A stretch of DNA of 64,000 bases from Promethearchaeota archaeon (GTDB lineage Archaea > Asgardarchaeota > Lokiarchaeia > Sigyniarchaeales > SOKP01). Below the pieces are notes generated by a model that saw only the letters and a program-made list of their open reading frames with translations, was not told the DNA's origin and made no database searches. This document shows, in pieces, positions 10,712 through 33,973 of the stretch. The stretch covers positions 96,001 to 160,000 of the forward strand of contig JAEOTZ010000058.1 in assembly GCA_016839585.1 (NCBI GenBank), written 5' to 3'. Position 1 is the stretch's first letter. The number at the start of each line of letters is the position of its first letter. Position numbers and translations under genes: made by a program.

Positions 10712-10724
10712 AGTTTATACCCTA

Positions 10725-16773: not shown

Positions 16774-16929
16774 ATCAATAAAATTAGATTATTATTAATC
16801 TTCATGGATTTAAATTATCTGGTTTATTTAATTTTAAGTGTTATTAAAAGAAAGAAAATTTTATTAACTAATCTATAGTATTCATATTTAATCATTTTTT
16901 ATAACTCAATATATAAAAGGTGTAAATTT

Positions 16930-17343: not shown

Positions 17344-17491
17344 ATGAAATTTTAAAGTTTAAATCATCTTTTTTTTTTAGTCTTTATAAGAATTACAAAT
17401 ATGCATAACCGAATCCTCTTTTTCTACGAAAAATTTTTTAATTATTCATTATTACTTCATCTGTATTTTAATATAAAAAAGTGAAAAAGAA

Positions 17492-18124
17492 ATGGCTCAT
17501 CGAAGACCTTGGAAATGTTATTCGAAATGGACTCGTAGACCCTATCAATACAAAAGAAGCTCAAATCGTAGGCGGGAATTTGCTCGGGGTGGAGCTCAGT
17601 CCAAAATAGTTCGTTTTTGGGGTGGAAACAAGGAAGCTCCATGGGAGTCTTTCGATTTAACGGTAGGACTTAAAGTCAACTCCCAAGTCCAGATTTCTTC
17701 AAACACGCTCGAAGCTATAAGAATTACTATAAATGGTGTTCTTCAAAGAAAACTAGGAAGACAGAATTATCGGCTTCGAATTCGTCCTAAACCATTTCAA
17801 AAGATTCGAGAGAATCGTATGTTGGCTTTTGCTGGCGCAGATCGGGTACAATCAGGTATGAGGAATTCTTTTGGGAGATCTACGGGAGTATGTGCCCGAG
17901 TTAGAGCAGGTCAAATTATTGTTGATGTAGGTGTTGATATCAAGAACCTTCCATTAGTAAGAGATAGACTTAGAGTAGCAAACATGAAAGTACCAAGTTC
18001 ATGTCAAATTGTTATTCTTAAGTATAAGACTCCAGAACTCTTAAAACAGTCAGGATTGCCATTATATGACGATAAAAAAAGAAAAGAAGTACCTCTTTAT
18101 GAATTAGAATTTGCGACTGCTTAA
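17492..18124 (+). CDS. rpl10e: 50S ribosomal protein uL16 (L10e)
   Basis: RRPWKCY, LEAIRI, RENRMLAFAGADRVQSGMRNSFG; archaeal/eukaryotic L10e type. Confidence 0.95.
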   Translation: MAHRRPWKCYSKWTRRPYQYKRSSNRRREFARGGAQSKIVRFWGGNKEAPWESFDLTVGLKVNSQVQISSNTLEAIRITINGVLQRKLGRQNYRLRIRPKPFQKIRENRMLAFAGADRVQSGMRNSFGRSTGVCARVRAGQIIVDVGVDIKNLPLVRDRLRVANMKVPSSCQIVILKYKTPELLKQSGLPLYDDKKRKEVPLYELEFATA

Positions 18125-18138: not shown

Positions 18139-19602
18139 TTATCCCCAAAATGGTTTCCAGCGATTCCATATGTCCCATCGCGGTATATTTTTTATATTAT
18201 ACCAGAAAGCTTTTTGTCTATATCTACTTTTTAAGATTTTATAAATTTGGCGGGATATGTAGCGGGGTCGCTGCATGAACTTTCTATGAGTTTCTTTTAT
18301 ACGTGCCATTAGTTCACTCAAAGGTATATTAAGAATAGCAGTACCAACTTCCCAACATTCATCAGGGTTGATTCGTTTTTCATCAACCATCTGATTCCAA
18401 ATCCAATTTCCTGGAATTATGCCTAAAATATGAAATTGTGGAAAATCAATATCCAATTTAAGTGCTAAATTAAATGTATCAATTATTTCCTCGCGTGTCT
18501 CAATTGGCGCACCCACTATAAAATTTGCTAGAATAATATCAATCCCAACCTTTTTCGAATTTTTTATTGCATCATAGACTTGATTTAGTGTAATTCGTTT
18601 ATTATACCAGTCTAAAACTCTTTGCGAGCCACTTTCGACGCCATAACTTATAATTTTGCAGCCCATATGTTTCATTGCAGTCAGAAGTTCCCTTGAACCC
18701 TGAGTCACCCTCCCCTCCGCCATCCAATTTAAATCTATCTTTTCCTTTCTAATTAATTGTGATAGTTCCATTAATCTTTTTTTACTTATAGTAAAATTAT
18801 CATCAACCCAATACAAATTTTGATAACCTTGATTCTCGAGAAGGGAAAGTTCTTCTACTATATTTTTCGGAGATCTTGGACGCCATCTGCCCCAAAACAT
18901 AGCGCTTGAGCAAAATGTACATTGAAATGCACAACCTCTTGAAGAAGAAGCAGTGGTAAAATTTCCTAGCGAAATATCAAGACCTTCTACTTCACTTTTA
19001 TATTCTACCTTTCCTAATAATTTCCTATTTGGAAATGGAAGGGTGTCAATATTTTCTATGAGGGGTCTATCTTTATTTCTAATAATTCTACCATTATTTC
19101 GATACGACACACCTCTTATATCTTCAAAGCCATGACCTTTTTCAGTTTTTTCAGCAATTTCTAAAAGAGTATTTTCCCCTTCTCCTCTAATGCAAGCATC
19201 AATGAATGGGTACTTATTTAATATTCTGGTATCATTGAAAGTTGCGTGATAATTCCCAAATAAAATCTTAACATTCGGATTTATTTCTTCCTTTACTCTT
19301 TTAGCAATTTCTGCTGATGTAATTCCAGTTCCTGAGGTGGTTATCGTTGAAAAACCTAAAATATCTGGATCTTCTTGCTTTATCCATTTCAAAGTTTCAT
19401 CAATTGAAGCTGATTGAGCGAACTGATCAAATATAGATGCCTTAAAATTATTTTCGGTTAGATAAGTCGCGAGATACAATATTCCCATTGGTGGAAATCC
19501 ATAGAAATCAATTTTTTCTTTGACATATTGTTCAGCTTCTTTAACGGTACCGCAAAATATTCCTCTATCTGGGGGTTTTGGAAAAATTAAAGATACTTTC
19601 AA
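18139..19602 (-). CDS. Cobalamin-binding radical SAM enzyme
   Basis: N-terminal B12-binding domain (PPMGILYLA, GNYHAT, RGEGE), SRGCAFQCTFC, DDNFT, GVESGS. Confidence 0.92.
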   Translation of the reverse strand: MKVSLIFPKPPDRGIFCGTVKEAEQYVKEKIDFYGFPPMGILYLATYLTENNFKASIFDQFAQSASIDETLKWIKQEDPDILGFSTITTSGTGITSAEIAKRVKEEINPNVKILFGNYHATFNDTRILNKYPFIDACIRGEGENTLLEIAEKTEKGHGFEDIRGVSYRNNGRIIRNKDRPLIENIDTLPFPNRKLLGKVEYKSEVEGLDISLGNFTTASSSRGCAFQCTFCSSAMFWGRWRPRSPKNIVEELSLLENQGYQNLYWVDDNFTISKKRLMELSQLIRKEKIDLNWMAEGRVTQGSRELLTAMKHMGCKIISYGVESGSQRVLDWYNKRITLNQVYDAIKNSKKVGIDIILANFIVGAPIETREEIIDTFNLALKLDIDFPQFHILGIIPGNWIWNQMVDEKRINPDECWEVGTAILNIPLSELMARIKETHRKFMQRPRYISRQIYKILKSRYRQKAFWYNIKNIPRWDIWNRWKPFWG

Positions 19603-19794
19603 AAAATCACTTTAAATTTGAATTAAATTTAATGGTTCTTTTAATTAAACATCATTATTTCAATTCTAGTTTAATTATATAGGTTAAATAAATCTTAAAA
19701 ATAAAATCATTTTTGATGTATATATTAGAAAAGAGATAAATGTATAATTAAAACTAATAATATCATACACAAACCTGTGAAAATGGTCTATTAA

Positions 19795-21255
19795 ATGAAA
19801 TTAATTGATAAAGAAATCCAAAAAGTAGCATTAGTAAATCCAAATTTTATTACTAAAAGCATTACAGATAAATTTACAATCCCTGCTTTAGGATTAGAAT
19901 ATCTTGCTGCTAATATTTTAGATTTAGCTGAAGTGAAGATAATTAATGGTAAAGTAAGGAATTTAAACCTCAAGGAAATTATGGAGGAAATTAATGAATT
20001 TAAACCAGATATTGTTGGAATTTCATGTTGTTTAACAACAGGAGTTAATTTTGCCTTAGAAATAGCAAAAGAGTCAAAAAAACTTGGATATTCAATCGTA
20101 TTAGGGGGTTGGCATCCTAATTTTGCCCCTTCTGAAGTTTTAAAATATCCATTTGTAGATATTATTGTCCGAGGAGAGGGAGAAGTCACCTTTCGGGAAT
20201 TAATCGAAAACAAAAATCTAGAAAAGATAAAAGGAATATCATATAAAAACAATGGGAGTATTATAAACAATCCAGATCGCCCATTAATCAAAGATTTAAA
20301 TAAACTACCATTTCCAGCAAGGGAATTAAGAAATAAAAAGTCTTATTTTCAAATCTTTCAGATGCCTATAGATGCGATTGAGACATCAAGGGGTTGCCCA
20401 TTTAAATGCACTTTCTGTAATATTCATCTTTTTTATCGAGGAACCTATAGAATAAAAAGTCCAGAACGGGTTATTCAGGAGTTAAAAATTATTACAAATG
20501 GAAAAAAACATATAAATGTAATGATTGTGGATGATAATTTCACAACAAATATTAAAAGAGTAGAGAAAATTTGTGATTTAATAATCAAAGAAGGAATTAA
20601 AGTGGATTTAACTTGTCAAAGTCGCATTGATGTTATAAAAAAGAATCCAAATGTAATCAAAAAAATGTCTAAAGCAGGGTTTTGGTGTTTTTTCCTTGGT
20701 ATTGAATCATTTAATCAAAAATCTTTAAATAGTATTCAGAAAAGAGTTCAATTCCGAGATATTTTTGAAGCAATTAAAATACTTCATGATAATGATATAG
20801 TAATAATTGGCAGTATGTTGGTAGGTTCAAATCTTGATGAGGAAGAGAAAGATACTGATCTAATGATAAAAGTTGTCAAAAAATTAGGAATAGATTTTCC
20901 ATTATATTCCGTAATGACACCTTTACTAGGTACGAAATTCAGAGATATCCTAATTGAAAAAAATTATCTTGTATCTCATAATTGGAGTGAATACAATTTT
21001 ACCACAGCAGTAAATCGATTAAATAAACTATCAAAGGAAAAGCTAGACCAACTTTTATCTAAGGCATATTATTATGGATATTTTCATAGGGGTTGGAAAG
21101 ATACTTTAATGAGATTATATAGGAAAAAAGGAATTAAAATATTTTTAAATACAAGAAAATTTAAAGCTCTTAAGGATATTTTAGGTTTATTTAGAAATAT
21201 TAGAAGAATGAAAAATGAAATAGATTCAATATCCCCTACCATAAAATTTAATTGA
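19795..21255 (+). CDS. Cobalamin-binding radical SAM enzyme
   Basis: LGLEYLAA, GGWHP, RGEGE, SRGCPFKCTFC, DDNFT, GIES. Confidence 0.92.
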   Translation: MKLIDKEIQKVALVNPNFITKSITDKFTIPALGLEYLAANILDLAEVKIINGKVRNLNLKEIMEEINEFKPDIVGISCCLTTGVNFALEIAKESKKLGYSIVLGGWHPNFAPSEVLKYPFVDIIVRGEGEVTFRELIENKNLEKIKGISYKNNGSIINNPDRPLIKDLNKLPFPARELRNKKSYFQIFQMPIDAIETSRGCPFKCTFCNIHLFYRGTYRIKSPERVIQELKIITNGKKHINVMIVDDNFTTNIKRVEKICDLIIKEGIKVDLTCQSRIDVIKKNPNVIKKMSKAGFWCFFLGIESFNQKSLNSIQKRVQFRDIFEAIKILHDNDIVIIGSMLVGSNLDEEEKDTDLMIKVVKKLGIDFPLYSVMTPLLGTKFRDILIEKNYLVSHNWSEYNFTTAVNRLNKLSKEKLDQLLSKAYYYGYFHRGWKDTLMRLYRKKGIKIFLNTRKFKALKDILGLFRNIRRMKNEIDSISPTIKFN

Positions 21256-22463
21256 AATTCCAAATTTTCAACAACAATTCCAATCCTTTCTATAAACTAC
21301 TTAATATTGCAATGTTAAGTATTAAACATAAATCGAAAAAACAATCTTTTCAATTACCAATATCGGGATATTTGGGATATTTTATAACTAAATTTTTTCA
21401 TTTTTATAAACCGATTACTTTAATTCATGAGAGATTTGAAACTATAACCTTATTTAATGAAATTAGTAAAATAAAAATAGATAAGCCTGTTTATATTACG
21501 GGTCTCGCTCGCGCAGGAACAACAATTGTATTGGAAATGTTAAGTAAGCACCCCGATTTAGCAACCCATCAATATAAGCATCTTCTTATACCATATTTCC
21601 CCTATTGGATGTATAAAATTACTAATAAGGTTAGAATTTATTCAAAACCTACTAAAAGGATCCACAACGATGGTATTATGATTACGCGTGATAGTCCTGA
21701 AGCAGTAGAGGAGATTTTCTGGAGAAAATATTTTAAGCATATAAGTATTGAAAATTCTTCACATATACTAAATGGGAACACTATAAACCCCAAATTTGAG
21801 AACTTTTATCCAAATCATATGCGGAAGCTTCTAATTGCCCAAATGCGTTCTCGGTATCTAGCAAAAAACAATTACAATGTCACCAGATTGGAGTATTTGC
21901 TAAGAATTTTCCCATCAGCTAAATTCTTGTTAATTATTCGCAACCCAGTAAATCATATTGCTTCATTAATTAAGCAAACAAAACTTTTCATGAAGATGGA
22001 AAAACAAATACCTTTTTTGCTAGATTGGTTGAAAATCCTAGGGCACCGAGAATTTGGTCATAATAGCATTTGTATTAATGTAAATAATACCGAATTAATT
22101 CATAAAATTCGTAAATTGTGGAGCAATAAAAAAACATATGTAAAAGGATGGGCTTATTATTGGGCGTCGATTTACGATTTTATTGCCAATAGTCTTGAAG
22201 AAAATAAAAAACTCAGAAGTGCAACCTTTACAGTTGATTACAATAAATTATGTGAGAAACCAGCAGATACTATTGATAGAATACTTGAACATACTGAACT
22301 ACCCTTAAGTAAATTTCTGAAAGTTAGAGAATATTATATTAATCATTTACATAAACCCACCTATTATTCTCCCGATTTTTCTGAACAAGAACTCTCAGAT
22401 ATTTATGAGGTTACAAAGGACACAGCTTCTCGATTTGGATTAAAAATTCCTTTAGGCAATTAA
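21252..22463 (+). CDS. PAPS-dependent sulfotransferase family protein
   Basis: 5'-PSB-like GLARAGTT and 3'-PB-like IIRNP..HIAS; TTG start overlaps upstream TGA. Confidence 0.82.
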   Translation: MKFQIFNNNSNPFYKLLNIAMLSIKHKSKKQSFQLPISGYLGYFITKFFHFYKPITLIHERFETITLFNEISKIKIDKPVYITGLARAGTTIVLEMLSKHPDLATHQYKHLLIPYFPYWMYKITNKVRIYSKPTKRIHNDGIMITRDSPEAVEEIFWRKYFKHISIENSSHILNGNTINPKFENFYPNHMRKLLIAQMRSRYLAKNNYNVTRLEYLLRIFPSAKFLLIIRNPVNHIASLIKQTKLFMKMEKQIPFLLDWLKILGHREFGHNSICINVNNTELIHKIRKLWSNKKTYVKGWAYYWASIYDFIANSLEENKKLRSATFTVDYNKLCEKPADTIDRILEHTELPLSKFLKVREYYINHLHKPTYYSPDFSEQELSDIYEVTKDTASRFGLKIPLGN

Positions 22464-23198
22464 CTGTCTTAAAGTTATAAATTCCCATTTTTTAACTAGA
22501 GATTCCACAATAAAACCACGTAATGTTTCTAAAAATGTATCTCCTGTATGAAGCCAACGATCTAGTCTAAATAAAATATTTTTTACTGTTTCAAATTTAC
22601 TGGCATGCTTACGAATTAAATTTTTCATATTTATTGCCTCATAAGGATGAAAATATAAAATAAGTAAATCCGTCTTAAAGATCTTCCGTTTGAGAAAAGG
22701 ATAAGGCAATCTCAAATAGATACTATATTTTGAAGGGTGAAATTCTTGAATTTTATTGCTATCCCTTTGATAATGTGATAATTTTTTGGGTGATCCAATC
22801 GAAGAATCGTACCTAAAACCTAAATTACTTAGTATTTCAAATAAAAATTTTGGTGGTTTTAAATAAGGAGCTCGAAAACCAATAATCTCTGAATTTTGAC
22901 AAGTTTCTTCTAGAACCTTTTTATTCTGATAAATTATATCTTGGCATTTAATAAAATCTAATTGATTTAAGCGTTCATGATATAAACCGTGGCAAGCAAT
23001 TTCATGACCTTTTTGCTCAATTAGTCTTATATACTCTGGTAGATGCTCAACAACATTTCCAGTACAAAAAAAAGTCCCCTTGACATTGAAATTATCTAAG
23101 ATATCCAATATTTTCAATAATCCAATTTCCACGCCGAAATAGGTATCCAAAACATTAGGAAGATCCCTCTCAATATCAAAAGTCAGTGCAATCTTCAT
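22452..23198 (-). CDS. Polysaccharide deacetylase (CE4) family protein
   Basis: LTFDIE, HEIACHGLYH, GFRAP, YDSS, YFHP. Confidence 0.88.
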   Translation of the reverse strand: MKIALTFDIERDLPNVLDTYFGVEIGLLKILDILDNFNVKGTFFCTGNVVEHLPEYIRLIEQKGHEIACHGLYHERLNQLDFIKCQDIIYQNKKVLEETCQNSEIIGFRAPYLKPPKFLFEILSNLGFRYDSSIGSPKKLSHYQRDSNKIQEFHPSKYSIYLRLPYPFLKRKIFKTDLLILYFHPYEAINMKNLIRKHASKFETVKNILFRLDRWLHTGDTFLETLRGFIVESLVKKWEFITLRQLIA

Positions 23199-23329
23199 TA
23201 TTTACGCAGTAATCTTTAAGATATAAAATAAACTAATTTTATTTTTATTAAATTTTATTTAAAGGCACAAAACTGAAAAATTTAATATTAATTTCAATAT
23301 TTAATTTCAGAAAAGTAGATTAAAAAACA

Positions 23330-24445
23330 ATGCGAGTGTTAATATTAGGTGCTGGGATTACTGGTTGTACATTGGGAAGACTGATGAAAGATAAGGATTA
23401 TCATATTTCAATTAAGGAAAAACAAGATCACATTGGTGGATTATGTTATACAAAGACAAGTCCTAATGGAATTCTATATGAACCCTATGGTGGACATGCA
23501 TTTCACACTAAAGATAGTCGTATTAAAAAGTTTGTTCTTAATTTCTCAGAGTTTAATAATTATATTCACAAAAAGGGAATTTTTATCAATGGTGTATTAC
23601 GTCATTTTCCTCTCAGTAGGAAAACTATTTTTGAGATGGAAAGAAGTGATAAAATTCTCAAGGAATTAGAAAAACGACCAATCACTCCTGATTTTACTAA
23701 TTTTGAAACTTTCGCAATTTCTCAATTTGGTAATACTTTATATAAATTATTTATATATAATTATTCTAAGAAAATGTGGGGTGTAGAACCCAAAGAATTA
23801 ACAACCGAATATATCCAAAATCGTATTACACTGAAAGACTCTAATACTCAGTTATTTGAAGATAATTTTCAAGGACTACCGGTTAAAGGATATACAAAAT
23901 TCCTTAGAAATATGATACATGACATCCCCATTGAATTAAATACTAGTGAATTTGACGAGTCTTTGTATGATCTCATTATATACTCAGGTCGAATAGATGA
24001 ACTATTTAAATTTAAATTTGGAATTTTACATTTTAGGTCTTTACGATTTGATTATAAGGAAAATGATGTTTGGGAAAATGATAATTATGGTACAATTAAC
24101 CTTCCTCAACATGCGAAATATATACGAAAAGTAAATTTTAAAATTATGTATCAACAGAAAATAAATAAATCATGGACCCAATATCAAGAACCGATATCAT
24201 TCTATAATAATATGCCAATGTATCCAATATATACTAAACAAAATATCGAATTATTTGATAGATATCTTATTGAAGCTTGCAAGTCTAATAAAATTATTCC
24301 CGTTGGTCGTTTGGGATTATACAAATATTTAGAAATGGGTCAAGCTATTTCTTTAGCAATGAATATGATTCTTTTAATAGAAAAATGGAAAAAATTAAGC
24401 CCTAAAAATAGATATCTTGAAATTAAGAAGCTATTAAATAATTAA
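23330..24445 (+). CDS. glf: UDP-galactopyranose mutase
   Basis: GAGITG, HIGGLCY, YGGHAFHT, YSKKMWG, FQGLP..GYT, GRLGLYKYLEM. Confidence 0.9.
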   Translation: MRVLILGAGITGCTLGRLMKDKDYHISIKEKQDHIGGLCYTKTSPNGILYEPYGGHAFHTKDSRIKKFVLNFSEFNNYIHKKGIFINGVLRHFPLSRKTIFEMERSDKILKELEKRPITPDFTNFETFAISQFGNTLYKLFIYNYSKKMWGVEPKELTTEYIQNRITLKDSNTQLFEDNFQGLPVKGYTKFLRNMIHDIPIELNTSEFDESLYDLIIYSGRIDELFKFKFGILHFRSLRFDYKENDVWENDNYGTINLPQHAKYIRKVNFKIMYQQKINKSWTQYQEPISFYNNMPMYPIYTKQNIELFDRYLIEACKSNKIIPVGRLGLYKYLEMGQAISLAMNMILLIEKWKKLSPKNRYLEIKKLLNN

Positions 24446-24460
24446 TAAGTCTAATTCTAG

Positions 24461-25270
24461 CTATGATTGTTTCTTCCAATTAATATCTTTTGCTAAATTA
24501 TAAAAAATGTCTTTTTTTGAATGGTATTGGACAACACGTCCTAAACTACGACGAGTGCTTAAATATCTTCCACTTGTTAACACTGAACTAAAATTTAGAT
24601 TTTTAATTTTACCCTTTTTCATTAATCTACTTAGATATATTAATGAATCTGAGAATACCTTGTCAATTCCCATTAAATTTGGCGGTAGTTGCTTAAATCC
24701 ACCAACTTTAAAAAATATATCTCTTCTAACAATTATATTGCATCCTATAAGTTCAGGATATCCAAGTAAAGTTTTAAAAAAATACCATAAGTGCATACTA
24801 AAGTTAAGAAAAAAATAGATTGTTATAGTAAATATCTGGGAACCCAAATTAAATGTAATGGCTCTTCCATCATAATATTTAACTCTGGCACTACAAGCAA
24901 AAAGATTTTTATGTTTCTCAAAGATTCTATAGACTTTTTGTAAGAAATATGGATCTATTAACGTATCTGCATCTAAAAATACAAGTAAATCACCAGAAGT
25001 TTTAGGTACAACAAAATTTAATTGAAATGACTTACCTCTTTTTGGTGAAATATACACTTTCGCATAATCTTTTGCTATAGAAACGGTTTTATCAGAGCTT
25101 TGTCCATCAACTACAATAATTTCATAAGGAACTATGCATTTTTGCTTTTTAACTGCTATTAAAGTTCTTTTTATATTAATCTCTTCATTATATGTGGGTA
25201 TGACAACTGATATTTTAGCGGTTTTCATTTTGCTATTTCTAAGTAGATTGAAATTTAATTTTTGATTCAT
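24461..25270 (-). CDS. Glycosyltransferase family 2
   Basis: VVIPTYNEE, VVDGQSSD, FLDAD, VGGF. Confidence 0.9.
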   Translation of the reverse strand: MNQKLNFNLLRNSKMKTAKISVVIPTYNEEINIKRTLIAVKKQKCIVPYEIIVVDGQSSDKTVSIAKDYAKVYISPKRGKSFQLNFVVPKTSGDLLVFLDADTLIDPYFLQKVYRIFEKHKNLFACSARVKYYDGRAITFNLGSQIFTITIYFFLNFSMHLWYFFKTLLGYPELIGCNIIVRRDIFFKVGGFKQLPPNLMGIDKVFSDSLIYLSRLMKKGKIKNLNFSSVLTSGRYLSTRRSLGRVVQYHSKKDIFYNLAKDINWKKQS

Positions 25271-25363
25271 TCACTTAGGGATAGTTATTATAATATGATT
25301 TTTTAATATTCTATAAAAGAATTAAATATATTAAAAAAAATTAATTGATTTTAGAATAAGAAA

Positions 25364-26479
25364 ATGTCAAAAGTCTCAAATAAAATGAAATTTTTCACGA
25401 TAGGATTCATATTTTCATTTATTTTCTTATTGCTAAGTTCTACAGTTATCATTTTATTTATAATTTCTCGATTATGGTTTTCAATTCCATGGATTGATAA
25501 AATTTATAACTATATAGCACCATTGTTATCATTATTTTTCTATGAATATAATTTATACGTCTATAGTGGATTTTTAATTGCCTTTGTGGTTTTACTTCCA
25601 TTATTTGTCTTAGGTTATAACATAGCAAAAACGAAGCAATTGTTTGGTTCAATAATGTTTATTTTTAGCTTATTAGGATTTGTAGTAATTATTTTTATAG
25701 GATCTTATTATGTCTATTTTAGTATCTTATTTAATCAAGATCTAACTCTTAATACCCGATTAATGTTATTTTTACTCTTTTTACCTATTAATTTTACTCT
25801 CAGTTTAGTCCTCTTCCAAGTAAATATAGACTTTTTCATTTTTTTAAAGGATTTGATTAAAGCAAGGAAAATTTGGAAGAGCAAAAGGCCTAAATTTGAA
25901 ATTGAAGTCAAAGGTAAAATAACTAATATTAATATAGATACAGATGAACACATTTTCACTCCTGTACCAATGTTAATTATCGCAAAATATCTTCGGAGCG
26001 AAGGTTATTCTGTTTCATGGTTTGTAAAAGGTGCCTTTAATCATTTATTTTCCTTACTAATTTCATATTTAAGTGGGTGGCCACGAGCTAGAAATATGTT
26101 ATTTCGATTAATCGGAATGAAAATAGGAAAAAATTGCCATATTTCTCAAAAAACAATACCTGACCCACTTTTACCTGAATTAATAGAATTTGAAGATGGG
26201 AGTGGGTGTGGGATTGGTGTGAAATTATTAACTCATAATGCAATGAATATAAAGCATGGAACTTTTAGTTTTGCTCCTATTAAAATATGTAAAAATGCTA
26301 GAATAGGGGCATATTCAGTAATACTACCTGGAGTTACAGTTGGTAGGGGATCAATTATTGGTGCTAGCTCAGTAGTAGCAGAGGATATACCACCATATTC
26401 TATCGCATATGGTTCTCCTGCTAAAGTTATGAGAAAATTAACAGAATTTGAAAAGGAACAGGTAAATAAAAGTTACTAG
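25364..26479 (+). CDS. Membrane-anchored left-handed beta-helix acyltransferase
   Basis: About 4 N-terminal TM helices; C-terminal hexapeptide repeats (IGAYSVILPGVTVGRGSIIGASSVV...GSPAK). Confidence 0.82.
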   Translation: MSKVSNKMKFFTIGFIFSFIFLLLSSTVIILFIISRLWFSIPWIDKIYNYIAPLLSLFFYEYNLYVYSGFLIAFVVLLPLFVLGYNIAKTKQLFGSIMFIFSLLGFVVIIFIGSYYVYFSILFNQDLTLNTRLMLFLLFLPINFTLSLVLFQVNIDFFIFLKDLIKARKIWKSKRPKFEIEVKGKITNINIDTDEHIFTPVPMLIIAKYLRSEGYSVSWFVKGAFNHLFSLLISYLSGWPRARNMLFRLIGMKIGKNCHISQKTIPDPLLPELIEFEDGSGCGIGVKLLTHNAMNIKHGTFSFAPIKICKNARIGAYSVILPGVTVGRGSIIGASSVVAEDIPPYSIAYGSPAKVMRKLTEFEKEQVNKSY

Positions 26480-26581
26480 ATTACTTCTTAAAAAAAATTT
26501 TAGGTGAGAACGTAGTAAACTACTAATTTTTATAATAATCATAAGTATAAAATTTATTAATTAAATAAAATAAATCATATA

Positions 26582-27781
26582 ATGGGAATTAGTATGGTCT
26601 CCGAAATAATGCTTATTGATTTAAGAAGTGAAGTAGAAGCAACTTCTAATGAATGTAAACTATATAAACAAATCTGTGAAGAAAAAGAATACGATTTTGA
26701 TCAGACCATCAAAGGATCAAATCTTGATGAAGTACCTTATGTAAATTGGAATTACTTTAAAGAATCAAATAAAAAATTTCAGGAATTATTACGAATTCCT
26801 TATAATAAATTATCATATTGGACAATTAGTTCATCCACGTCCGGAGATCCAAGTTTAGTAGGGAGAGGTGCCGAAGACATTGAAGTATTTAAGAATAATT
26901 ATAGAAAAGTATTTGAAGAATATTCAAGAATGCGTTCAATTAAACGTTTAATCTTATTTGCTCCATCAATTGAATTTATGAATAAAATGCCAGGGAGCTG
27001 GTTAGGAAAACGAGGTTTTCTTTTTTATCGAGATATTACAGATATTTGGAAAAATTATGAGATAGATTTTTTATTGAAATTTAAAGTTTGGAAGGTTCTT
27101 CTCTACTTAATTACTCATTTTAAGGCAAAAGCATTTATCGAAATAAATGGAAAACTGATGGTAAAAATTCTTAAAGAGGTAGAACACCAGAAAATTCCTA
27201 CATTGATTGCTAATTCAGTTCCTCTAATGTACCAAAATTTTGTAGATTATTATAAGAAGCATAAAAAAGGTTTTAATATGCCTGAAACTTTCAGGATTCA
27301 ACTTGGAGGGGGAGGATGGAACGGTATAAAAGGTAGAATAAGACTTGAGCATAAAATAAATAAAGTGGACTTTATGGAAAAGATGTCTAGTTTATTCAAC
27401 ATCCCTTATGATAATATTACAGATAATTATGGTGCAACTGAAGTTCCAATTGCCTGTGGTGGTCATTGGAGTAAAAATTATGAGGATTTTCTATTTCATA
27501 TTGATAAAGATGATGCTCATATAATCATCCGTGATATAGATACTCTCGAAAGTATAAAAAAAACAAATGAACCTGGTATAATTGAGGTATTAACCCCTTA
27601 CGGTGTTAAATCCTATGCAGGTGTTGCTGTCATGCTTGATGATATAGTTGAAATAGTAAATTTTAACAAATGTGTTGAATGTGGTAGAGAAGGAATAGTA
27701 TTTAGAATAACGGGAAGAATGACACCAGAAATTGGAAAAGGATGTAGTTCTTTTACGAATTTGTTCCCTTTTAAATCATAA
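26582..27781 (+). CDS. LuxE-like acyl-protein synthetase
   Basis: SSSTSGDPS, GGGGW, DNYGATE, LDD, CVECGREG..FRITGR...GKGCS. Confidence 0.78.
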   Translation: MGISMVSEIMLIDLRSEVEATSNECKLYKQICEEKEYDFDQTIKGSNLDEVPYVNWNYFKESNKKFQELLRIPYNKLSYWTISSSTSGDPSLVGRGAEDIEVFKNNYRKVFEEYSRMRSIKRLILFAPSIEFMNKMPGSWLGKRGFLFYRDITDIWKNYEIDFLLKFKVWKVLLYLITHFKAKAFIEINGKLMVKILKEVEHQKIPTLIANSVPLMYQNFVDYYKKHKKGFNMPETFRIQLGGGGWNGIKGRIRLEHKINKVDFMEKMSSLFNIPYDNITDNYGATEVPIACGGHWSKNYEDFLFHIDKDDAHIIIRDIDTLESIKKTNEPGIIEVLTPYGVKSYAGVAVMLDDIVEIVNFNKCVECGREGIVFRITGRMTPEIGKGCSSFTNLFPFKS

Positions 27782-27881
27782 ATTCCTAAAAGCTTTTTTT
27801 TAATATAACTTCAATTAAAAATATAAATAGATCAATATCTAAATTTATAATCTAATAATTAATTCATTAAAAGGAATCAAG

Positions 27882-28736
27882 ATGTTTAAAAATAATACTA
27901 ATTCTTGGATAAAGAAACTAATTATTCTTTTCATATTTATAGGCGTAATTATGTTAACTGCTGAAGTAGACTGGGTTGCTGAGCATCCTAACGTAGGAAT
28001 CTCTGTGCGATTAATATGGTTAATTAGTTTATTAAGTTTAGGTTTAATTTTATCCCTTCTATTTATGTATTTTGCAGGCAATGACGAAAGCGAAAGAGGA
28101 GAATCTGATAAAAAGTGGTTTATAATAGCTATTATTCTATTCATAATCGCTAATGGAATTCCAATCGTGTTTTATGCAATACTTGGAATCTCACCAGGTT
28201 TCTTTATATATCTTCAATTAATTTTGTTTGGGCTAATTCCGGCTTTTTTTCATCAACCAAAAGAAATAAAACATCGAATTCTAATATTAGTTATTCTTTT
28301 TGCAGTTATTCTTATCCCCGTAGGGATTTTTGTCAATTTAACAATTGATGCTATTTGGTATAAGGGAGTAGATGATAAAACTATGTATTATTTATCCTTC
28401 TGGGGATTATTAATGACCTTTTTCTATCTTATTGTTGCGATTGGCTGGAAATTGGGTGGTGGCACTAAAAGGCAAAGCTGGAATATATTCGTGGCTGGAA
28501 CTCTTTTACAATATAGCACTCTCGAAGATTTTTTCTACTTCTTGTTAAATGGGCAATCACTTCCTGGTACTTGGCCTTGGATGAGTAATTTCGTTATTGA
28601 TTTAAAAACTTTATTTGGGCATGTTCCAACTGACTTGGATCTTCTCATTTTTTGTCTAATAATAAGTATCATTGCACTGTTTATTCTTTTTGATGGTCAT
28701 GGCTATCTATGGACAAAGATTAGAAAAAGTGGCTAA
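27882..28736 (+). CDS. Multi-pass membrane protein of unknown function
   Basis: About 8 hydrophobic segments; LEDFFYF...WPW motif. Confidence 0.7.
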   Translation: MFKNNTNSWIKKLIILFIFIGVIMLTAEVDWVAEHPNVGISVRLIWLISLLSLGLILSLLFMYFAGNDESERGESDKKWFIIAIILFIIANGIPIVFYAILGISPGFFIYLQLILFGLIPAFFHQPKEIKHRILILVILFAVILIPVGIFVNLTIDAIWYKGVDDKTMYYLSFWGLLMTFFYLIVAIGWKLGGGTKRQSWNIFVAGTLLQYSTLEDFFYFLLNGQSLPGTWPWMSNFVIDLKTLFGHVPTDLDLLIFCLIISIIALFILFDGHGYLWTKIRKSG

Positions 28737-28754
28737 TAAGAATAAAAGGATAAA

Positions 28755-30056
28755 TTAATGAAGCCAATCAATTATTGAAGAGCAACTTCTACCTTGAGCA
28801 TCCGTTAATCTTCCGATAACTCTAAATGTAGCACCTTCATAACCACATTCTGGACATTTCTTTTTTGAAATAAGCTTTACAATATCGTCAACTAGAACTG
28901 CCTGATTTATGCTACCATTTACACCGTATGGAGTAATTACTTCGAGCAAACCTTCCATACCATCATTTACAGGTTCTAACTTATCTAGATCTCTTACTAT
29001 AATCCTAGAGGTATCAGGGCAATGTAATAAGAAGTCTTGGTATTTTTCAGACCAGTGTCCTCCAAAGAGAGTCGGACCCTCTGTAAATGCGTAAATATCG
29101 GCAATATCTTTCGATTTAATGTTAAAAATTTTTTCATAATTTTCAATAAATCTAACTTTTTCTACTGCGTCTAATTTTGCTTCACCCTTAACGCCATCCC
29201 ATCCTCCACCACCACAACCAACGAAAGCTAGACCATCAAGATCAAAAAAAACGTTTTCTTTTGATAATCTTTTCTCAAACATGTTATTCATTAAAAGTGG
29301 GCTCCCACCAAATATAATTTTACTCACTTCTATTCCTTTCCAATGCCCTGTTTTTAGAATTGTTGTAACCATTTTCAGCATTTTACTTACATCTAATATA
29401 AAACCCCCTCTTATTGAAAGAGATGAAATTATTGCCCAAATTGTTTTTAAAATTTTTCCTTTTATCATATATTCCTCATGCCCATAGTATTCCCATGGTT
29501 TATTCATGCATGCTGTGAAATAGCGTGTTTTTTTAACATATTCAAATCCTTTAGCATTTTTTTTTGCCATAAATGACATCATTAAACGATTTGGTGCAAA
29601 ATTAAAAACAAGACATCTTTTGGGACCAACTTTTAAGTCCTTCCATCTAAAAAACTCTGTAAAAACTTTAATTGAATTATATTGTATCTGGTCAAAATCC
29701 TCTAATGTTCGAGGCACAATTGAGGGATCCCCTGTTGTAGAAGATGAACATGAAAATAATACAATTTTATCAATAGGTACTTTTAGTAGTTGTGAGGTTC
29801 GACCTTCTGATTTTTTATAAATGTCAGTAGGAGTATAGGGGATTGTTTCTAAATTATCGATTGTTAATTTCTCTGGAATTTTAAAATCAAACTTCTTACA
29901 AAAATTATCTTTGTAATAATTACAATTATTATAGGCAACCTTTATTTGTTCTAATAAATCTTCGCAAAATTTTTCATCTGGATAAGGAGTAGGTTTAAAA
30001 TCAAAATATTTCGTTTGTAATTCTTCAGGTAAATAATCATGTGCTTTAAATACCAA
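28755..30056 (-). CDS. LuxE-like acyl-protein synthetase (paralogue)
   Basis: SSSTTGDPS, GGGGWDG, DIYAFTE, VDD, CPECGYEG..FRVIGR...GRSCS. Confidence 0.78.
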   Translation of the reverse strand: MVFKAHDYLPEELQTKYFDFKPTPYPDEKFCEDLLEQIKVAYNNCNYYKDNFCKKFDFKIPEKLTIDNLETIPYTPTDIYKKSEGRTSQLLKVPIDKIVLFSCSSSTTGDPSIVPRTLEDFDQIQYNSIKVFTEFFRWKDLKVGPKRCLVFNFAPNRLMMSFMAKKNAKGFEYVKKTRYFTACMNKPWEYYGHEEYMIKGKILKTIWAIISSLSIRGGFILDVSKMLKMVTTILKTGHWKGIEVSKIIFGGSPLLMNNMFEKRLSKENVFFDLDGLAFVGCGGGGWDGVKGEAKLDAVEKVRFIENYEKIFNIKSKDIADIYAFTEGPTLFGGHWSEKYQDFLLHCPDTSRIIVRDLDKLEPVNDGMEGLLEVITPYGVNGSINQAVLVDDIVKLISKKKCPECGYEGATFRVIGRLTDAQGRSCSSIIDWLH

Positions 30057-30153
30057 AAAAATAACCTAATTTCAAAATTTTTTGTATTAATTTAAAGAAT
30101 TACGGGTAAATAATTAAATCTTATCTGATATTAATAAAAAAAAAGAAAATAAA

Positions 30154-31506
30154 TTATATAGTAGATAAGGCTACTATTTCTGCTTCTTCTTTTTCGAAAA
30201 GCATTGGCGTTTTTTCCCAACTTAAATCTTTAGGAAGTTTAAATTGACGTAAAAACATATAAAGATGAATAAAGCCACTTATTGGAAAAAATAATAAAAG
30301 ACTGTAATGTTTATCACAATATTTACGTATGGCATTGAATATAAATCCAAATTGAAAGATCAAGCAGAAAAGGCTCCAACTTAGTAAATAAAATTCTCCA
30401 ATCATAAAATAAAATATTGCAAAACCAATTATAATAGGGATCCACGTATCTAAATTCGCTATAACCATCATTGTCATATTTCTGGAGATAACTAGTGATT
30501 TCCCATTCTTTTTTTCGCTTTTCATTTGCATTAATTGTGGCATATCAAAAATAAATCCTGCTAGCCAGCGTGTTCGTTGTTTTACTAGAATCTCCCATGT
30601 ATTTGGCACATATTCGTAAATTTTTGCCTTGGGCGAAAAGTAAATTTGTACTCCATCTAAATTTAAAAGCACAGAAAGATATAAATCCTCTGTCATTGAA
30701 TCTTCATTAAAACCTCCATATTTCAGTAGATATTTCGTCCTAACAGCAAAATTTCGCCCAAATGAATAAGCTGATGACCCTAATCTATTTTTAATTTCAA
30801 ATAATAATCCCCCTCCAGAAACAATAGAATAATCAAGAAAGATACCTTTAGTTAATTTATTATCTTTCCAATTTTTAACTAAAACAGGACCTATAACTGC
30901 ATTATATCTATCATCTTGAAATGGTGAGATTAAATGTTTTAATGTATCTGGTTGTAAAATACAACCTGCATCATAAAGGACAACAATATCATTTTTTACA
31001 TATTTTAAACCATAATTCAGGGCTGGGGGTTTTCCCTTTTTAGGAAGATCCTCTGATAACACTTCTATCTCTATTGCGTTATGTTCTCTAGCAAAATTTC
31101 TACAAAAATCGGTTGTATCATCTGTCGATCCACTTGTTATTACAATTATTTGGATGTTTTCTTTGGGATAATTTGACTCAATAATCGAGTTTAAAGTCCT
31201 CTCTATTAGTATTCTTTCATTTTTACAAGCAATTAATATGCTTATATTAGTATAATAAGGTGTTTTGGTTCGATAGCCTCTCCCAAATGATGCTAAGAAA
31301 TGTATTCCATAAAAAATAACGAATCCTAACAACATAACTAGACCAATTAATGGAAATATGAACCACCAGTAAGTTAAAGGCTTAAGGATGAATCTATCAA
31401 TTGCTCTTTTTACTCCCGATGACCAGAAAGGTGCTAAATACATATGAAATAGCGTAAAGACTATCACCAATACACATCCATGTAGTAAATATCTTGTAAT
31501 TTTCAT
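30154..31506 (-). CDS. Membrane-bound processive-type GT2 (cellulose synthase-like)
   Basis: KGKPPALN, YDAG, TED, QRTRW motifs; TM helices at both ends. Confidence 0.88.
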   Translation of the reverse strand: MKITRYLLHGCVLVIVFTLFHMYLAPFWSSGVKRAIDRFILKPLTYWWFIFPLIGLVMLLGFVIFYGIHFLASFGRGYRTKTPYYTNISILIACKNERILIERTLNSIIESNYPKENIQIIVITSGSTDDTTDFCRNFAREHNAIEIEVLSEDLPKKGKPPALNYGLKYVKNDIVVLYDAGCILQPDTLKHLISPFQDDRYNAVIGPVLVKNWKDNKLTKGIFLDYSIVSGGGLLFEIKNRLGSSAYSFGRNFAVRTKYLLKYGGFNEDSMTEDLYLSVLLNLDGVQIYFSPKAKIYEYVPNTWEILVKQRTRWLAGFIFDMPQLMQMKSEKKNGKSLVISRNMTMMVIANLDTWIPIIIGFAIFYFMIGEFYLLSWSLFCLIFQFGFIFNAIRKYCDKHYSLLLFFPISGFIHLYMFLRQFKLPKDLSWEKTPMLFEKEEAEIVALSTI

Positions 31507-31510
31507 CTTT

Positions 31511-32446
31511 TCATTCTCTCTTAATTTTATCCAATTTTTTTAAATTTTTCCAAATATATCTAGCAAAAAGAATAACTGAAAGGGTCATAATACCTAAAAG
31601 ACTGATTTGATAAATCAACATTGTCCAATTCACTACCCATTCGTGTGACGCAGACCATATTTCAGTTGCATCGGGATTAATCAAATGTGTTAATAATACC
31701 ACAAGACTAGAAGTGCCATAGAGTGCAAAAAACGTAGTTATTAATAATATTCGCGTTATTCTCTCACCAATAAATGGTTTTGTCTCATGTAGACCTAAAC
31801 CTTCATGTCTTGCTCTCATGTACTCATAAATAAAAATTAGTAAGATATTGGTCCAAACCATCCATGCAAAATCGAATCCATTCGATAAAACCACTAAATT
31901 AGTAGGAACTAAACATACCAACATTAATGTATCGCTTACTCTATCAATCACATTATCTAACCAACCCCCACTTTTTGATTTTATATCCAATAACCTTGCT
32001 ATTGATCCATCAATTCCATCGATAATTCCTGTCACTAGTACTAAAGCAGCAAGACCAAAAAACAAAGAGCCATAACCAAGTTGGTCAGAAAACAAATCTA
32101 ATGTGTGCCCCTTACTAGCCATTATAACACCATAAAATATGAGAAATGATAATATTAGATTTATGAAAGATACTAAATTTGGAGTTAAGCCCCATTTGAT
32201 AAAGATTTTTGCTCCGTGATATGTTATTGGCATATAGATTTTTCCTGCTGGATCCTTTTTCATTTTTGCAAATTGTTCTTCTTGCTTGTGAGCCTGTCCA
32301 TGATCATTCAGCCAATCTTTTATAAATTCATCCAAGCTCATAAATTCCTGTTTTGGATATTTTTTAGAGATTCCAATAATGAAAATAATAATTAGAATCC
32401 CAAGCAAAACTAGCGGAAATACTATTTCAAATATTATTTTTGTCAT
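31511..32446 (-). CDS. CDP-alcohol phosphatidyltransferase family protein
   Basis: TPN; DGIDGSIAR...SKSGGWLDNVIDRVSD signature. Confidence 0.9.
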   Translation of the reverse strand: MTKIIFEIVFPLVLLGILIIIFIIGISKKYPKQEFMSLDEFIKDWLNDHGQAHKQEEQFAKMKKDPAGKIYMPITYHGAKIFIKWGLTPNLVSFINLILSFLIFYGVIMASKGHTLDLFSDQLGYGSLFFGLAALVLVTGIIDGIDGSIARLLDIKSKSGGWLDNVIDRVSDTLMLVCLVPTNLVVLSNGFDFAWMVWTNILLIFIYEYMRARHEGLGLHETKPFIGERITRILLITTFFALYGTSSLVVLLTHLINPDATEIWSASHEWVVNWTMLIYQISLLGIMTLSVILFARYIWKNLKKLDKIKRE

Positions 32447-32623
32447 ATCACTCGCCGGGTATTATTTTATTCTTTATTGTTCTTATAAATTTGAAATTGG
32501 TAATTTAATATAGAGTATAATATATTATTTAAATTTAGTGTAAATTAGATGATTAAATGAAAGGTTATTATATTCAACTTGTATTTATAATATTAATACT
32601 ATCATCTAGGTAGAATAAATATC

Positions 32624-33973
32624 TTGAAGAACCTTGAACCTTTTTTTAACCCAAAAAGTATCTTAATTGTAGGCGTTTCAAGGAAAGCTTATACTTTTAG
32701 TTATACTGTCTTAAAAAACCTTTTAGAGATTTTTTATCAAGGCAAACTCTACATATTAAACCCTAATGCTAATGAGGTATTAGGTGTTAAATCCTATCAT
32801 TCTTTAGAAGAATTACCTGAAATTCCAGAACTAGCAGTAATAGTTTTAGGTACGAAAATATTAGACATTGTGGAAGAATTAGGGAAGTATGGTGTGAAAT
32901 ATGTAACAATTCAATCTGAATTAAAAACAGGAATTAATGATACTGATTTAACATTAAAATTGCATAAAGTCTGTGAAAAATATGGGATAACCTATTTAGG
33001 ACCTTCAATGATAGGAATTATTAACTTTATTGATAACTTTACGACATCAATTATTCCTGTTAGACAACATATAATGCGAGAAAATAAGAACATAACAGAG
33101 GGTATAGGTTTCATAGCACAATCTGGAGGGTTAGCAGGTGCTCTAGGGTGGTGGACCCCCTCACAAAAATTACCCATATCAAAAGTTATACACTTAGGAA
33201 AAGGCTTTCACGTTAATGAACAAGATATTATTGAATTCTTTCTTAATGATAAAACAGTTAAAGTTATTTCTTTGTTTTTAAGGGAAATTTCGGATGACCT
33301 AATTGACGCAGTAAAGAATATCTCTCAATATAAACCCGTTCTTTTCTTTTATGTAGGAAAAGATGAATTAAAAGAAAGAGAATTAGAAAAAGCAGGAGGA
33401 ATATCAGTATTAAATTACATTGAGCTTTTTGAGATAGCTAAGATATTCTTATGGTGTCCAGAGCCTAAGGGTCCCAATTTAGGGATTATTGGACCTAGTT
33501 CTGGTGCAATTCATCTAATTGTAAAAGAAATGAGAAAACAACATTTATCTTTGGCAAAACCAGATAAAGAATCTCAAGACATAATTATAAATAAAATAGG
33601 TGGCTCTACTTGCGCATATGGTAACCCTGTTGATTATTGGCCCCCAGAGAAATTTATAGGTATTAAAATTTGTGGTATCTATAATACATCTGCTTCTACT
33701 TTATTAAAGGACGAACATGTTGATGGATTAATCCTTGCCTTGGAATTTTTTATTGAAATTGAATTTGATTTTAATATATTTGATAGTATAAGAAGAACAA
33801 ATCCAGATAAACCAATTATCGTAATTCTTATACAAGCCGAACATGAAGGAGCCAAACGAGTATTCAAATCTGCTTCTGAGATAAAGATTCCCGTCTTTGA
33901 AAATGAAATAGAGCGCGCTGTACGAGGATATAGATTGTTATATGACTATTATTCAAAAATAAAAAAGAAATAA
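32624..33973 (+). CDS. ADP-forming acyl-CoA synthetase alpha-like CoA-binding protein, apparently lacking the phospho-His segment
   Basis: FFNPKSI.IVGVS, GPSMIG, AQSGG, NPVD; no SHTG motif. Confidence 0.75.
   Translation: MKNLEPFFNPKSILIVGVSRKAYTFSYTVLKNLLEIFYQGKLYILNPNANEVLGVKSYHSLEELPEIPELAVIVLGTKILDIVEELGKYGVKYVTIQSELKTGINDTDLTLKLHKVCEKYGITYLGPSMIGIINFIDNFTTSIIPVRQHIMRENKNITEGIGFIAQSGGLAGALGWWTPSQKLPISKVIHLGKGFHVNEQDIIEFFLNDKTVKVISLFLREISDDLIDAVKNISQYKPVLFFYVGKDELKERELEKAGGISVLNYIELFEIAKIFLWCPEPKGPNLGIIGPSSGAIHLIVKEMRKQHLSLAKPDKESQDIIINKIGGSTCAYGNPVDYWPPEKFIGIKICGIYNTSASTLLKDEHVDGLILALEFFIEIEFDFNIFDSIRRTNPDKPIIVILIQAEHEGAKRVFKSASEIKIPVFENEIERAVRGYRLLYDYYSKIKKK

Follow-up and report, generated by a model that had tools for sequence, protein, structure and literature searches.

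The mycobacterial phosphatidylinositol-mannoside (PIM) operon groups pgsA1 (phosphatidylinositol synthase), patA (acyltransferase) and pimA (glycosyltransferase). Its product is an inositol phospholipid with acyl and glycosyl groups, on which lipoglycans are anchored. In the early steps of glycosylphosphatidylinositol (GPI) anchor synthesis, N-acetylglucosamine (GlcNAc) is joined to phosphatidylinositol, de-N-acetylation follows and the inositol is acylated; methanogens have glucosaminyl-archaetidylinositol. Very little is known of the polar lipids and surface glycoconjugates that Asgard archaea make, and these bear on the partner interactions and membrane change of the archaeal ancestor of eukaryotes. 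The island described here lies in a 64,000-nucleotide stretch of a Promethearchaeota genome (the window; contig C47:96001-160000 of an assembly of 3.45 Mb, 99% complete). It comprises genes g01 to g12 and is the form that a modular biosynthetic island takes in one species; such islands occur within a single family of Loki-type Asgard archaea and, in more distant form, within a single class. The genes may well assemble a lipid-anchored phospho-glycoconjugate derived from GlcNAc, either a phosphoglycolipid or a short lipoglycan, and tailor it in a species-specific way; this is the reading that we favour, with moderate confidence. No published description of the cluster was found in full-text literature on Asgard and Lokiarchaeal lipid head groups, radical S-adenosylmethionine (SAM) enzymes and CDP-alcohol enzymes.

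The island resembles the PIM operon in bringing together a CDP-alcohol phosphotransferase, a glycosyltransferase and an acyltransferase. The homology shared between the two is membership of the PF01066 family. Unlike PimA, a GT4 enzyme, the island glycosyltransferase is a synthase-type membrane enzyme of family 2 (GT2). Acylation would use LuxE-type activation together with a left-handed beta-helix (LbH) transferase, and the island adds genes for a deacetylase, a sulfotransferase, UDP-galactopyranose mutase (Glf) and B12-binding radical SAM enzymes (B12-rSAMs). The likeness to this operon, to GPI synthesis, to the hopanoid HpnI/HpnK/HpnJ enzymes and to the Nod-factor enzymes is one of logic only.

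The invariant core of the island is a co-directional gene pair. g12 (31511..32446, minus strand) encodes a divergent CDP-alcohol phosphotransferase and is the first gene of an operon. A gap of 4 bp separates it from g11 (30154..31506, minus strand), a membrane-embedded synthase-type GT2 resembling PgaC and NodC, and the third gene is g10 (28755..30056, minus strand), an acyl activator of the LuxE type (LuxE2). Full-length orthologues of g12 (57–92% identity) were found in 59 of 134 family genomes and in 8 of 13 genera; 67 genomes pass at E ≤ 1e-10, and the eight that hold just weak paralogue matches were left out. g11 is present in 57 genomes, all of them among the 59, and no genome has g11 alone. 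In the two g12-positive genomes without g11, g12 lies at or near a contig end. Both genes are on the same strand in all 43 loci that have both, and all but one of these loci have a gap of −7 to 248 bp. Elsewhere in the class, relatives of g12 show 40–51% identity in three more families and 31–32%, over the full length, in a fourth. Beyond the class, matches are partial (E ≥ 4e-17) and chiefly to short open reading frames (ORFs) of about 200 residues that resemble archaetidylinositol-phosphate (AIP) synthase. Homologues of g12 and g10 were also sought in a collection of 5.8 billion proteins. The matches listed have generic protein names; most carry no source name, and those that do come from Asgard metagenome-assembled genomes (MAGs) or a marine sediment metagenome.

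The g12 protein is placed in CDP-OH_P_transf (PF01066) at 43.1 bits against a gathering threshold of 22. CDP-alcohol phosphotransferases are marked by the signature D-x2-D-G-x2-A-R-x8-G-x3-D-x3-D. This is intact in g12 (DGxxDGxxAR-x8-G-x3-D-x3-D) and reads DGIDGSIAR...GGWLDNVID. The top four NCBIfam matches are AIP synthase (71.5 bits), BT1523-type phosphatidylinositol-phosphate (PIP) synthase (61.9), PIP synthase (52.1) and DIPP synthase (41.3), all of which transfer inositol phosphate. The score for AIP synthase (NF040950) is far below the equivalog cut-off of 180, and g12 is unlike the compact proteins of that family (about 190–200 residues, profile length 191, no N-terminal extension). It has 311 residues, with an additional transmembrane (TM) helix at the N-terminus and some 55 residues of linker, both kept in orthologues. 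Five further CDP-alcohol phosphotransferase paralogues are encoded in the genome, three of them AIP-synthase-like (134–161 bits), one PssA-like and one DIPPS-like. Judged by its sequence, g12 is an additional, divergent paralogue within this genome. No fusion form was seen among the longer proteins searched, which is weak evidence. An in-frame TAA was flagged in four g12 orthologues; in the three that were checked, none falls within the N-terminal 120 residues.

In other lineages a small protein with two TM segments and the loop SGxSxFxPSxP...FLP...GxLxD is usually encoded directly upstream of g12 (L053:16445-16789(-), L052:3266-3610(+), L048:3127-3471(+), L042:1898-2242(-) and about 15 more loci). 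No Pfam family covers it, and the window's genome gives no match to it at E < 0.1. AIP synthase works on CDP-archaeol and L-myo-inositol-1-phosphate; indirect hints that g12 may do likewise are its four best NCBIfam matches and the inositol-phosphate synthase (MIPS) encoded in the source genome. On contig C90 (L066, G000:C90:18000-30000) a DIPP-synthase-like gene (4696-5346(-), 124.7 bits), an IPCT-like cytidylyltransferase gene (6756-7532(+), 91 bits) and an inositol-3-phosphate synthase gene (7575-8732(+), 432 bits) lie within 4 kb. The trio points to a pathway of the CDP-inositol or di-myo-inositol-phosphate type in a Lokiarchaeon from marine sediment.

In synthase-type membrane GT2 enzymes, of which the cellulose, chitin and NodC-like synthases are examples, a GT-A domain is held between TM helices and bears TED and QxxRW motifs. 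g11 is of this type. Its Pfam matches are Glyco_tranf_2_3 (118 bits) and Chitin_synth_2 (31 bits), TM segments are predicted at residues 3–30, 43–75, 346–393 and 401–419 (two N-terminal and about three to four C-terminal), and the TED (SMTEDL) and QRTRW motifs are present.

Conservation of the neighbourhood was assessed in 35 loci of the family, picked solely by g12. They represent seven genera, and 11 are cut by contig ends, so that gene counts are lower bounds. The island neighbourhood recurs around g12 orthologues in all 35, and the grouping of the genes is therefore not due to chance. A large GT2 of the g11 type is present in 33 loci, at least one B12-rSAM in 29 (0–6 copies per locus), a LuxE family member in 27 (LuxE2 orthologues of at least 60% identity to g10 in 23), a membrane-anchored LbH transferase in 25, a small GT2 in 25 and a CE4 deacetylase in 22. 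A sulfotransferase gene occurs in ten loci, Glf in ten (within the window's genus only) and the six-TM protein g09 in nine. The core is thus the CDP-alcohol phosphotransferase/GT2 pair with B12-rSAMs and LuxE, and sulfation and galactofuranose (Galf) are optional decorations. A first-pass annotation of this DNA had postulated a pathway, so far undescribed, by which an Asgard archaeon builds a glycolipid or surface glycan. The general idea, a membrane-linked glycoconjugate made by an archaeon of the Loki type, holds. Co-localization of the genes in relatives, which had been set beforehand as the test of that proposal, is seen across seven genera. The expected sulfated and galactofuranosylated product fared less evenly: the genes are present in the window, but each is confined to ten of the 35 loci. 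A sulfated, galactofuranosylated and acylated glycolipid would be the product predicted for this species.

Other families recur in the islands of relatives and not in that of the window. These include a 345-residue radical SAM protein encoded with a 330-residue GT2 and an alpha/beta-hydrolase, SPASM radical SAM proteins, U32 proteins, zinc-ribbon/three-TM proteins, an ABBA prenyltransferase and an SCP2 protein. In a minimal variant (genome G189), g12, g11 and LuxE2 are followed by three B12-rSAM genes on a single strand; versions of this size, with six genes, lend themselves to heterologous expression. In G026, which belongs to a different family of the same order, one strand carries in succession a gene of no assigned family, g12, g11, U32, LuxE, LuxC (320 bits) and a short-chain dehydrogenase/reductase (SDR) gene, with two B12-rSAMs, a second U32 and a second LuxE further along. 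The LuxE-LuxC-SDR segment of this locus forms a module resembling a fatty-acid reductase (L053, G026:C133:72600-92500, positions 8463-11966(-)). In G166, a member of another family, the next genes after the cluster encode an ABC transporter of the MacB/FtsX type, with two permeases and one ATPase (L051, G166:C139:14200-34100, positions 10180-13900(+)); near no other version of the island was an exporter candidate seen. Gene content, motifs, operon pairing, presence or absence and the shuffling of modules between species can be read directly from these genomes. The island is a concrete, conserved and testable locus with a two-gene core and exchangeable tailoring modules, much as in O-antigen or PIM/lipoarabinomannan loci.

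The limits of the island were mapped by tblastn of window proteins against the DNA of relatives. Thirteen ORFs lie back to back at 18139-33973, on strands − + + − + − + + + − − − +. The contiguous ORFs and domains described by the first-pass annotation are borne out, including 12 placements in Pfam families above gathering cut-offs, the exception being g09 (27882-28736). Its view that the mixed orientation rules out a single operon is likewise correct, since strand and spacing define at least seven transcription units. It had also counted the CoA-binding gene (CoAbind; 32624..33973, plus strand; Pfam CoA_binding_2/Succ_CoA_lig) as a member of the island. This gene belongs to the backbone, because it is retained in all five same-genus genomes that have no island. 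In these five genomes without g12 the order MeaB-MCM-...-CCG-LUD-SDR-rSAM0568-(PKcyc)-L10e-CoAbind is unbroken and the site is empty. The island is therefore a unit of 12 genes, 18139-32446, present in some genomes and absent from others at a single chromosomal site. Genomes of the genus mostly have the order SDR, island, rSAM0568-PKcyc-L10e-CoAbind. In the window and in its near-identical relatives G221 and G207 (81–98% identity) it is SDR-rSAM0568-PKcyc-L10e, island, CoAbind. Because the island is found on either side of the rSAM0568-PKcyc-L10e block, depending on species, a ribosomal protein gene has been relocated locally. In the window this block (15640-18124) encodes a radical SAM protein of the MSMEG_0568 family (269.5 bits against a cut-off of 303.7), a polyketide-cyclase-like protein and ribosomal protein L10e. 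Signatures of a horizontal-transfer island were considered and rejected: no tRNA gene was found in the window, no repeats mark the island ends (just short AT-rich chance repeats occur in and around it), and its G+C content does not depart from the roughly 30% of the whole window.

All NCBIfam matches of the 13 ORFs score under the curated cut-offs, and the names given to g01-g12 therefore hold at the family level only. The following scheme for synthesis, with its substrates, order of steps and product, is a proposal drawn from the genes. (i) g12 would make a phosphodiester-linked lipid acceptor at the cytoplasmic face of the membrane. CDP-archaeol is the likely donor, and its use would account for the island needing no cytidylyltransferase. 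(ii) g11 would add one or more hexosamine-type sugars. (iii) g04 (22452..23198, minus strand), a NodB-type CE4 polysaccharide/GlcNAc deacetylase predicted to be cytoplasmic, would free the amine. Its Pfam match is Polysacc_deac_1 (64.6 bits), NCBIfam gives XrtA-system deacetylase (86 bits) and NodB (59 bits) under their cut-offs, and the protein opens directly with the TFDIE catalytic motif, with no signal peptide or TM segment. (iv) The two LuxE-type enzymes, g08 and g10, would convert carboxylic, probably fatty, acids to acyl-AMP and then to an acyl-enzyme thioester for re-acylation. (v) g07 (25364..26479, plus strand), a membrane-anchored LbH transferase, would O-acetylate or O-acylate the product. 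Its first 165 residues are hydrophobic (about five TM segments), the Hexapep match (40.2 bits) covers residues 306–339, and the best NCBIfam match is heptaprenylglyceryl-phosphate O-acetyltransferase (71.4 bits against 300). (vi) g06 (24461..25270, minus strand), a small soluble GT2 whose gene pairs divergently with g07 in 25 of 35 loci, would add a further sugar. Its matches are Glycos_transf_2 (98.1 bits) and TIGR04283, the best in NCBIfam (89.6 bits against 182). In the window's genus this sugar may be Galf supplied by the accessory Glf, g05 (23330..24445, plus strand), which scores 133.8 bits against GLF (PF03275, gathering 26.3) and 233 bits against TIGR00031 (equivalog cut-off 303.75). 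(vii) g03 (21252..22463, plus strand), an accessory cytoplasmic sulfotransferase (Sulfotransfer_3, 72.9 bits; no TM segment), would sulfate the product using 3′-phosphoadenosine 5′-phosphosulfate (PAPS). Its stretches GLARAGTT and RNPxxHxxS resemble PAPS-binding loops, and APS kinase is encoded in the source genome, which fits PAPS supply. (viii) g01 and g02 would act on unactivated carbons in the sugar or the lipid part, methylating or rearranging them. The longest-ORF starts of g03 and g06 are probably too far upstream, since orthologues align only from residue ~15–30 and 11–19 onward, respectively.

The remaining accessory gene, g09 (27882..28736, plus strand), encodes a conserved protein with six predicted TM segments. 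It has no Pfam or NCBIfam match, and its orthologues share 60–85% identity. An AF2 model (pLDDT 75.8) gave no Foldseek match at E ≤ 0.001, VIA-align found generic helical bundles only (Z ≤ 6.7), and matches in the ESM Atlas were just unnamed bacterial clusters below 0.9.

g01 (18139..19602, minus strand) and g02 (19795..21255, plus strand) are class B (B12-binding) radical SAM enzymes. Both combine the B12-binding (PF02310; 67.8 and 79.1 bits, respectively) and Radical_SAM (PF04055; 92.5 and 75.6 bits) domains with a CxxxCxxC motif (CAFQCTFC and CPFKCTFC). They share about 30% identity and are divergently arranged in relatives as well; g01 orthologues of at least 70% identity occur in 7 of 35 loci. 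The best NCBIfam matches are BchE (186 bits), HpnJ (173) and ApyD (171) for g01, and BchE (192), HpnR (158) and HpnJ (143) for g02, all under cut-off; neither protein belongs to HpnJ (TIGR03471, cut-off 577.6) or HpnR (TIGR04367, cut-off 650). The island gene set nevertheless recalls the hopanoid sequence HpnI/HpnK/HpnJ, in which a GT2 transfers GlcNAc, de-N-acetylation follows and a B12-rSAM acts (HpnJ ring contraction to a cyclitol ether). HpnJ is the first or second NCBIfam match not only for g01 but also for the tandem B12-rSAMs of relatives (183 and 157 bits). Scores, however, are far under the cut-offs (310 for HpnI) and BchE does as well as HpnJ, the deacetylase is of the CE4 and not the YdjC type, and the anchor would be a phospholipid and not a hopanoid. 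A YdjC-like carbohydrate deacetylase gene (142.6 bits) does occur with a GNAT acetyltransferase gene at 7848-9277 in the window, beside the MeaB/methylmalonyl-CoA mutase genes and 9 kb upstream of the island; YdjC is the family of the hopanoid deacetylase HpnK. Among archaea, the B12-rSAMs Grs, Gmm, Cgm and Ted modify lipid tails, and one archaeal lipid enzyme of this kind was identified partly through its gene neighbourhood (10.1101/2025.10.20.683597). The island enzymes are archaeal, belong to the same subclass and may likewise act on membrane lipids. The available portion of that report mentions no adjoining CDP-alcohol phosphotransferase/GT2 pair for those enzymes.

LuxE enzymes are acylated at a cysteine near the C-terminus. 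g08 (26582..27781, plus strand; LuxE1 type), an adenylate-forming activator of the LuxE/PaaK type, and g10 both belong to the LuxE family (PF04443; 59.5 and 82.9 bits against a gathering threshold of 24.9). At least 95% of the 47 family members compared share with g10 the P-loop SSSTxGxPS (S104-S112), a TE motif and Cys425; the adenylation P-loop and a cysteine near the C-terminus are likewise conserved in g08. Nine of the 35 loci have a LuxE1-type copy of at least 45% identity, and four loci of other families have one at 56–66%. A phmmer search of PDB sequences gave no match for g10, and the ESM Atlas confirmed the LuxE family. If these enzymes attach fatty acyl groups, the product would mix archaeal and bacterial/eukaryotic lipid chemistry. 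A possible second island, at a third LuxE paralogue on contig C88, was rejected: its neighbours (URO-D, a corrinoid protein and MTHFR) are unrelated.

Several lines of evidence favour a membrane-anchored phospho-glycoconjugate. The invariant, closely spaced g12-g11 pair joins a member of a lipid-synthase family to a synthase-type GT2. Every active site predicted lies in the cytoplasm or on the cytoplasmic side of the membrane, and no flippase, polymerase or oligosaccharyltransferase was found: Wzx, Wzy, AglB and capsule exporters are absent from the Pfam matches of the 13 ORFs and of 30 recurrent-family representatives from relatives. LuxE, with LuxC and SDR in one lineage, is linked to the pair. 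The lipid connection lies in the integral-membrane phospholipid-synthase family to which g12, with its intact catalytic motif, belongs, in the inositol-phosphate transfer common to its four best matches together with the MIPS gene, in the LuxE-LuxC-SDR module behind the pair in G026, and in the SCP2, alpha/beta-hydrolase and ABBA prenyltransferase genes of some island variants. The established action of B12-rSAMs on archaeal lipids provides a precedent. Heavy shuffling of modules at a fixed site, as in O-antigen loci, suggests by analogy a surface-exposed, diversifying product.

Several observations weigh against this reading. Apart from the sub-threshold NCBIfam scores, the CDP-alcohol phosphotransferase family includes enzymes with soluble products (DIPP synthase) and users of CDP-alcohol donors, so that the lipid donor or acceptor proposed for g12 could be wrong. 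The mixture of BchE, HpnJ, HpnR and the peptide-modifying ApyD among the best matches of the B12-rSAMs leaves their function unreadable from sequence. LuxC (PF05893), the acyl-CoA/acyl-protein reductase partner in LuxCDE fatty-acid reductase systems, has no match in the source genome, which leaves the acyl acceptor of the LuxE enzymes conjectural. Minimal variants such as that of G189 have no deacetylase or LbH genes within the 18 kb covered, and a deacetylate/re-acylate logic is consequently not universal. The carriers found are all uncultured MAGs: this is the title of all 49 loci in species-representative genomes, most of them as Promethearchaeota or Promethearchaeia. Finally, g11 is most like polysaccharide synthases, and its combination with a CE4 deacetylase fits a free poly-N-acetylglucosamine (PNAG)- or chitin-like polymer as well.

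This last point leads to the rival that survives best, a synthase-dependent exopolysaccharide or oligosaccharide, which is possible though clearly a secondary candidate. g11 would polymerize and export a GlcNAc-type chain that is partly deacetylated by g04, acetylated by g07, sulfated by g03 and galactofuranosylated, with g12 adding only a phospho-alcohol substituent or primer. The best family for g11 is indeed PgaC/IcaA (TIGR03937; 110.6 bits, cut-off 422.3), with residues 49–401 aligned to positions 6–357 of the 407-residue profile, near full length and including TM regions. The TED and QxxRW motifs and the Chitin_synth_2 match agree with this, sulfotransferase and Glf are typical glycan-tailoring genes, and CE4 deacetylases accompany PgaC, IcaA and NodC. 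PgaB and IcaB are extracytoplasmic, however, whereas g04 has neither signal peptide nor TM segment. No co-polymerase or export partner was found among the Pfam matches, the window ORFs and the recurrent families of relatives, and the invariant partner of g11 belongs to a lipid-synthase family. LuxE/LuxC/SDR, SCP2 and several B12-rSAMs are atypical of exopolysaccharide loci. The nearest solved structure to g11, PDB 6yv7 (E 4.7e-15), is a non-processive archaeal mannosyltransferase. Should the island make an ordinary exopolysaccharide, its interest would be modest.

The membrane-anchored phospho-glycoconjugate can be given a more specific form, which is speculative and somewhat doubtful. The product would be a GPI/PIM-like lipid that Lokiarchaeia make by non-homologous enzymes: an (inositol)phospho-archaeol carrying a hexosamine that is de-N-acetylated, re-acylated with a fatty acyl chain and C-methylated or carbocyclized by the B12-rSAMs. 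Its decoration with sulfate, Galf and acetyl groups, differing between species, would form a surface identity layer in syntrophic or virus interactions. As in the early GPI steps, the predicted set comprises an enzyme like an inositol-phospholipid synthase, N-acetylhexosamine transfer, de-N-acetylation and acylation. PIG-A (GT4) and PIG-L (LmbE family) are not homologues of the island enzymes, and the inositol acceptor is only hinted at by the best matches of g12. If true, this would be an archaeal membrane glycolipid with fatty acyl chains of the bacterial/eukaryotic type.

A soluble small molecule, such as a glycosylated compatible solute of the inositol-phosphate type or a secreted signal resembling a lipo-chitooligosaccharide, is an unlikely product. 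The family of g12 does include DIPP synthase, and the small GT2 weakly matches glucosyl-3-phosphoglycerate synthase (47.6 bits). A GT2, a CE4 deacetylase, a sulfotransferase, an LbH protein and acyl activation also mirror the logic of NodC, NodB, NodH, NodL and NodA. The island shares with Nod-factor and PNAG enzymes the combination of a QxxRW membrane GT2 and a CE4 deacetylase. The deacetylase is cytoplasmic, as is NodB, and re-acylation, sulfation and LbH O-acetylation would come next, as in Nod-factor synthesis. The scores tell against this, with NodC (TIGR04242) at 40.4 bits against 550, NodB (TIGR04243) at 59 against 240 and NoeE at 27, all far under the equivalog cut-offs, as is the PgaC score. 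No NodA-type gene is among the Pfam matches of the 13 ORFs, and the CDP-alcohol phosphotransferase and B12-rSAMs have no counterpart in Nod or PNAG synthesis. In addition, g11, g12, g07 and g09 are polytopic membrane proteins, and a separate DIPPS-like/IPCT-like/MIPS cluster exists on contig C90.

Modification of membrane proteins or ribosomal peptides by glycosylation, acylation and radical SAM chemistry is very unlikely. The candidate substrates would be the zinc-ribbon proteins of relatives, which begin with a zinc ribbon and also have a linker rich in Pro, Gln and Thr and three TM segments. The islands of 18 of the 35 loci encode them, in as many as six tandem copies (loci include L044:13419-19073, L045:269-2466 and L049:6500-8795). 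SPASM radical SAM proteins in 6 of 35 loci, the ApyD score (171 bits), this enzyme being one that acts on ribosomally synthesized and post-translationally modified peptides (RiPPs), and a weak match of the small GT2 to the SunS S-glycosyltransferase family point the same way. The window's island, however, contains no such substrate gene and has no room for one, as its intergenic gaps do not exceed 193 bp. A CDP-alcohol phosphotransferase and a synthase-type GT2 are foreign to the known logic of RiPP synthesis and protein glycosylation, and no oligosaccharyltransferase or leader-peptide protease was found. A partial parallel is provided by bacterial flagellin glycosylation islands, inside which luxE and luxC are located (PMC7874193, PMC4875605). 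In the portions of these sources available, LuxE-type acyl-protein synthetases likewise lie within variable glycan-tailoring islands with glycosyl-, acetyl- and methyltransferases, but those islands also carry LuxC, acyl carrier protein and nonulosonic-acid genes and decorate protein.

The idea that unrelated genes without a common pathway were gathered in a recombination hot spot draws on the mixed orientations with at least seven transcription units, the strong shuffling of gene content between species and the movement of the adjoining backbone block, but it is already strongly disfavoured and barely credible, given that g12 and g11 co-occur perfectly at tight spacing and that the LbH/GT2/CE4 module, B12-rSAMs and LuxE accompany the pair in seven genera, LuxE also in other families.

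Beyond the island, the window encodes two small GTPases of eukaryote-like families, Roc/Arf/Ras (37799-38392) and Gtr1/RagA (42955-43863, 82.6 bits). Such small GTPases are typical of Asgard genomes.

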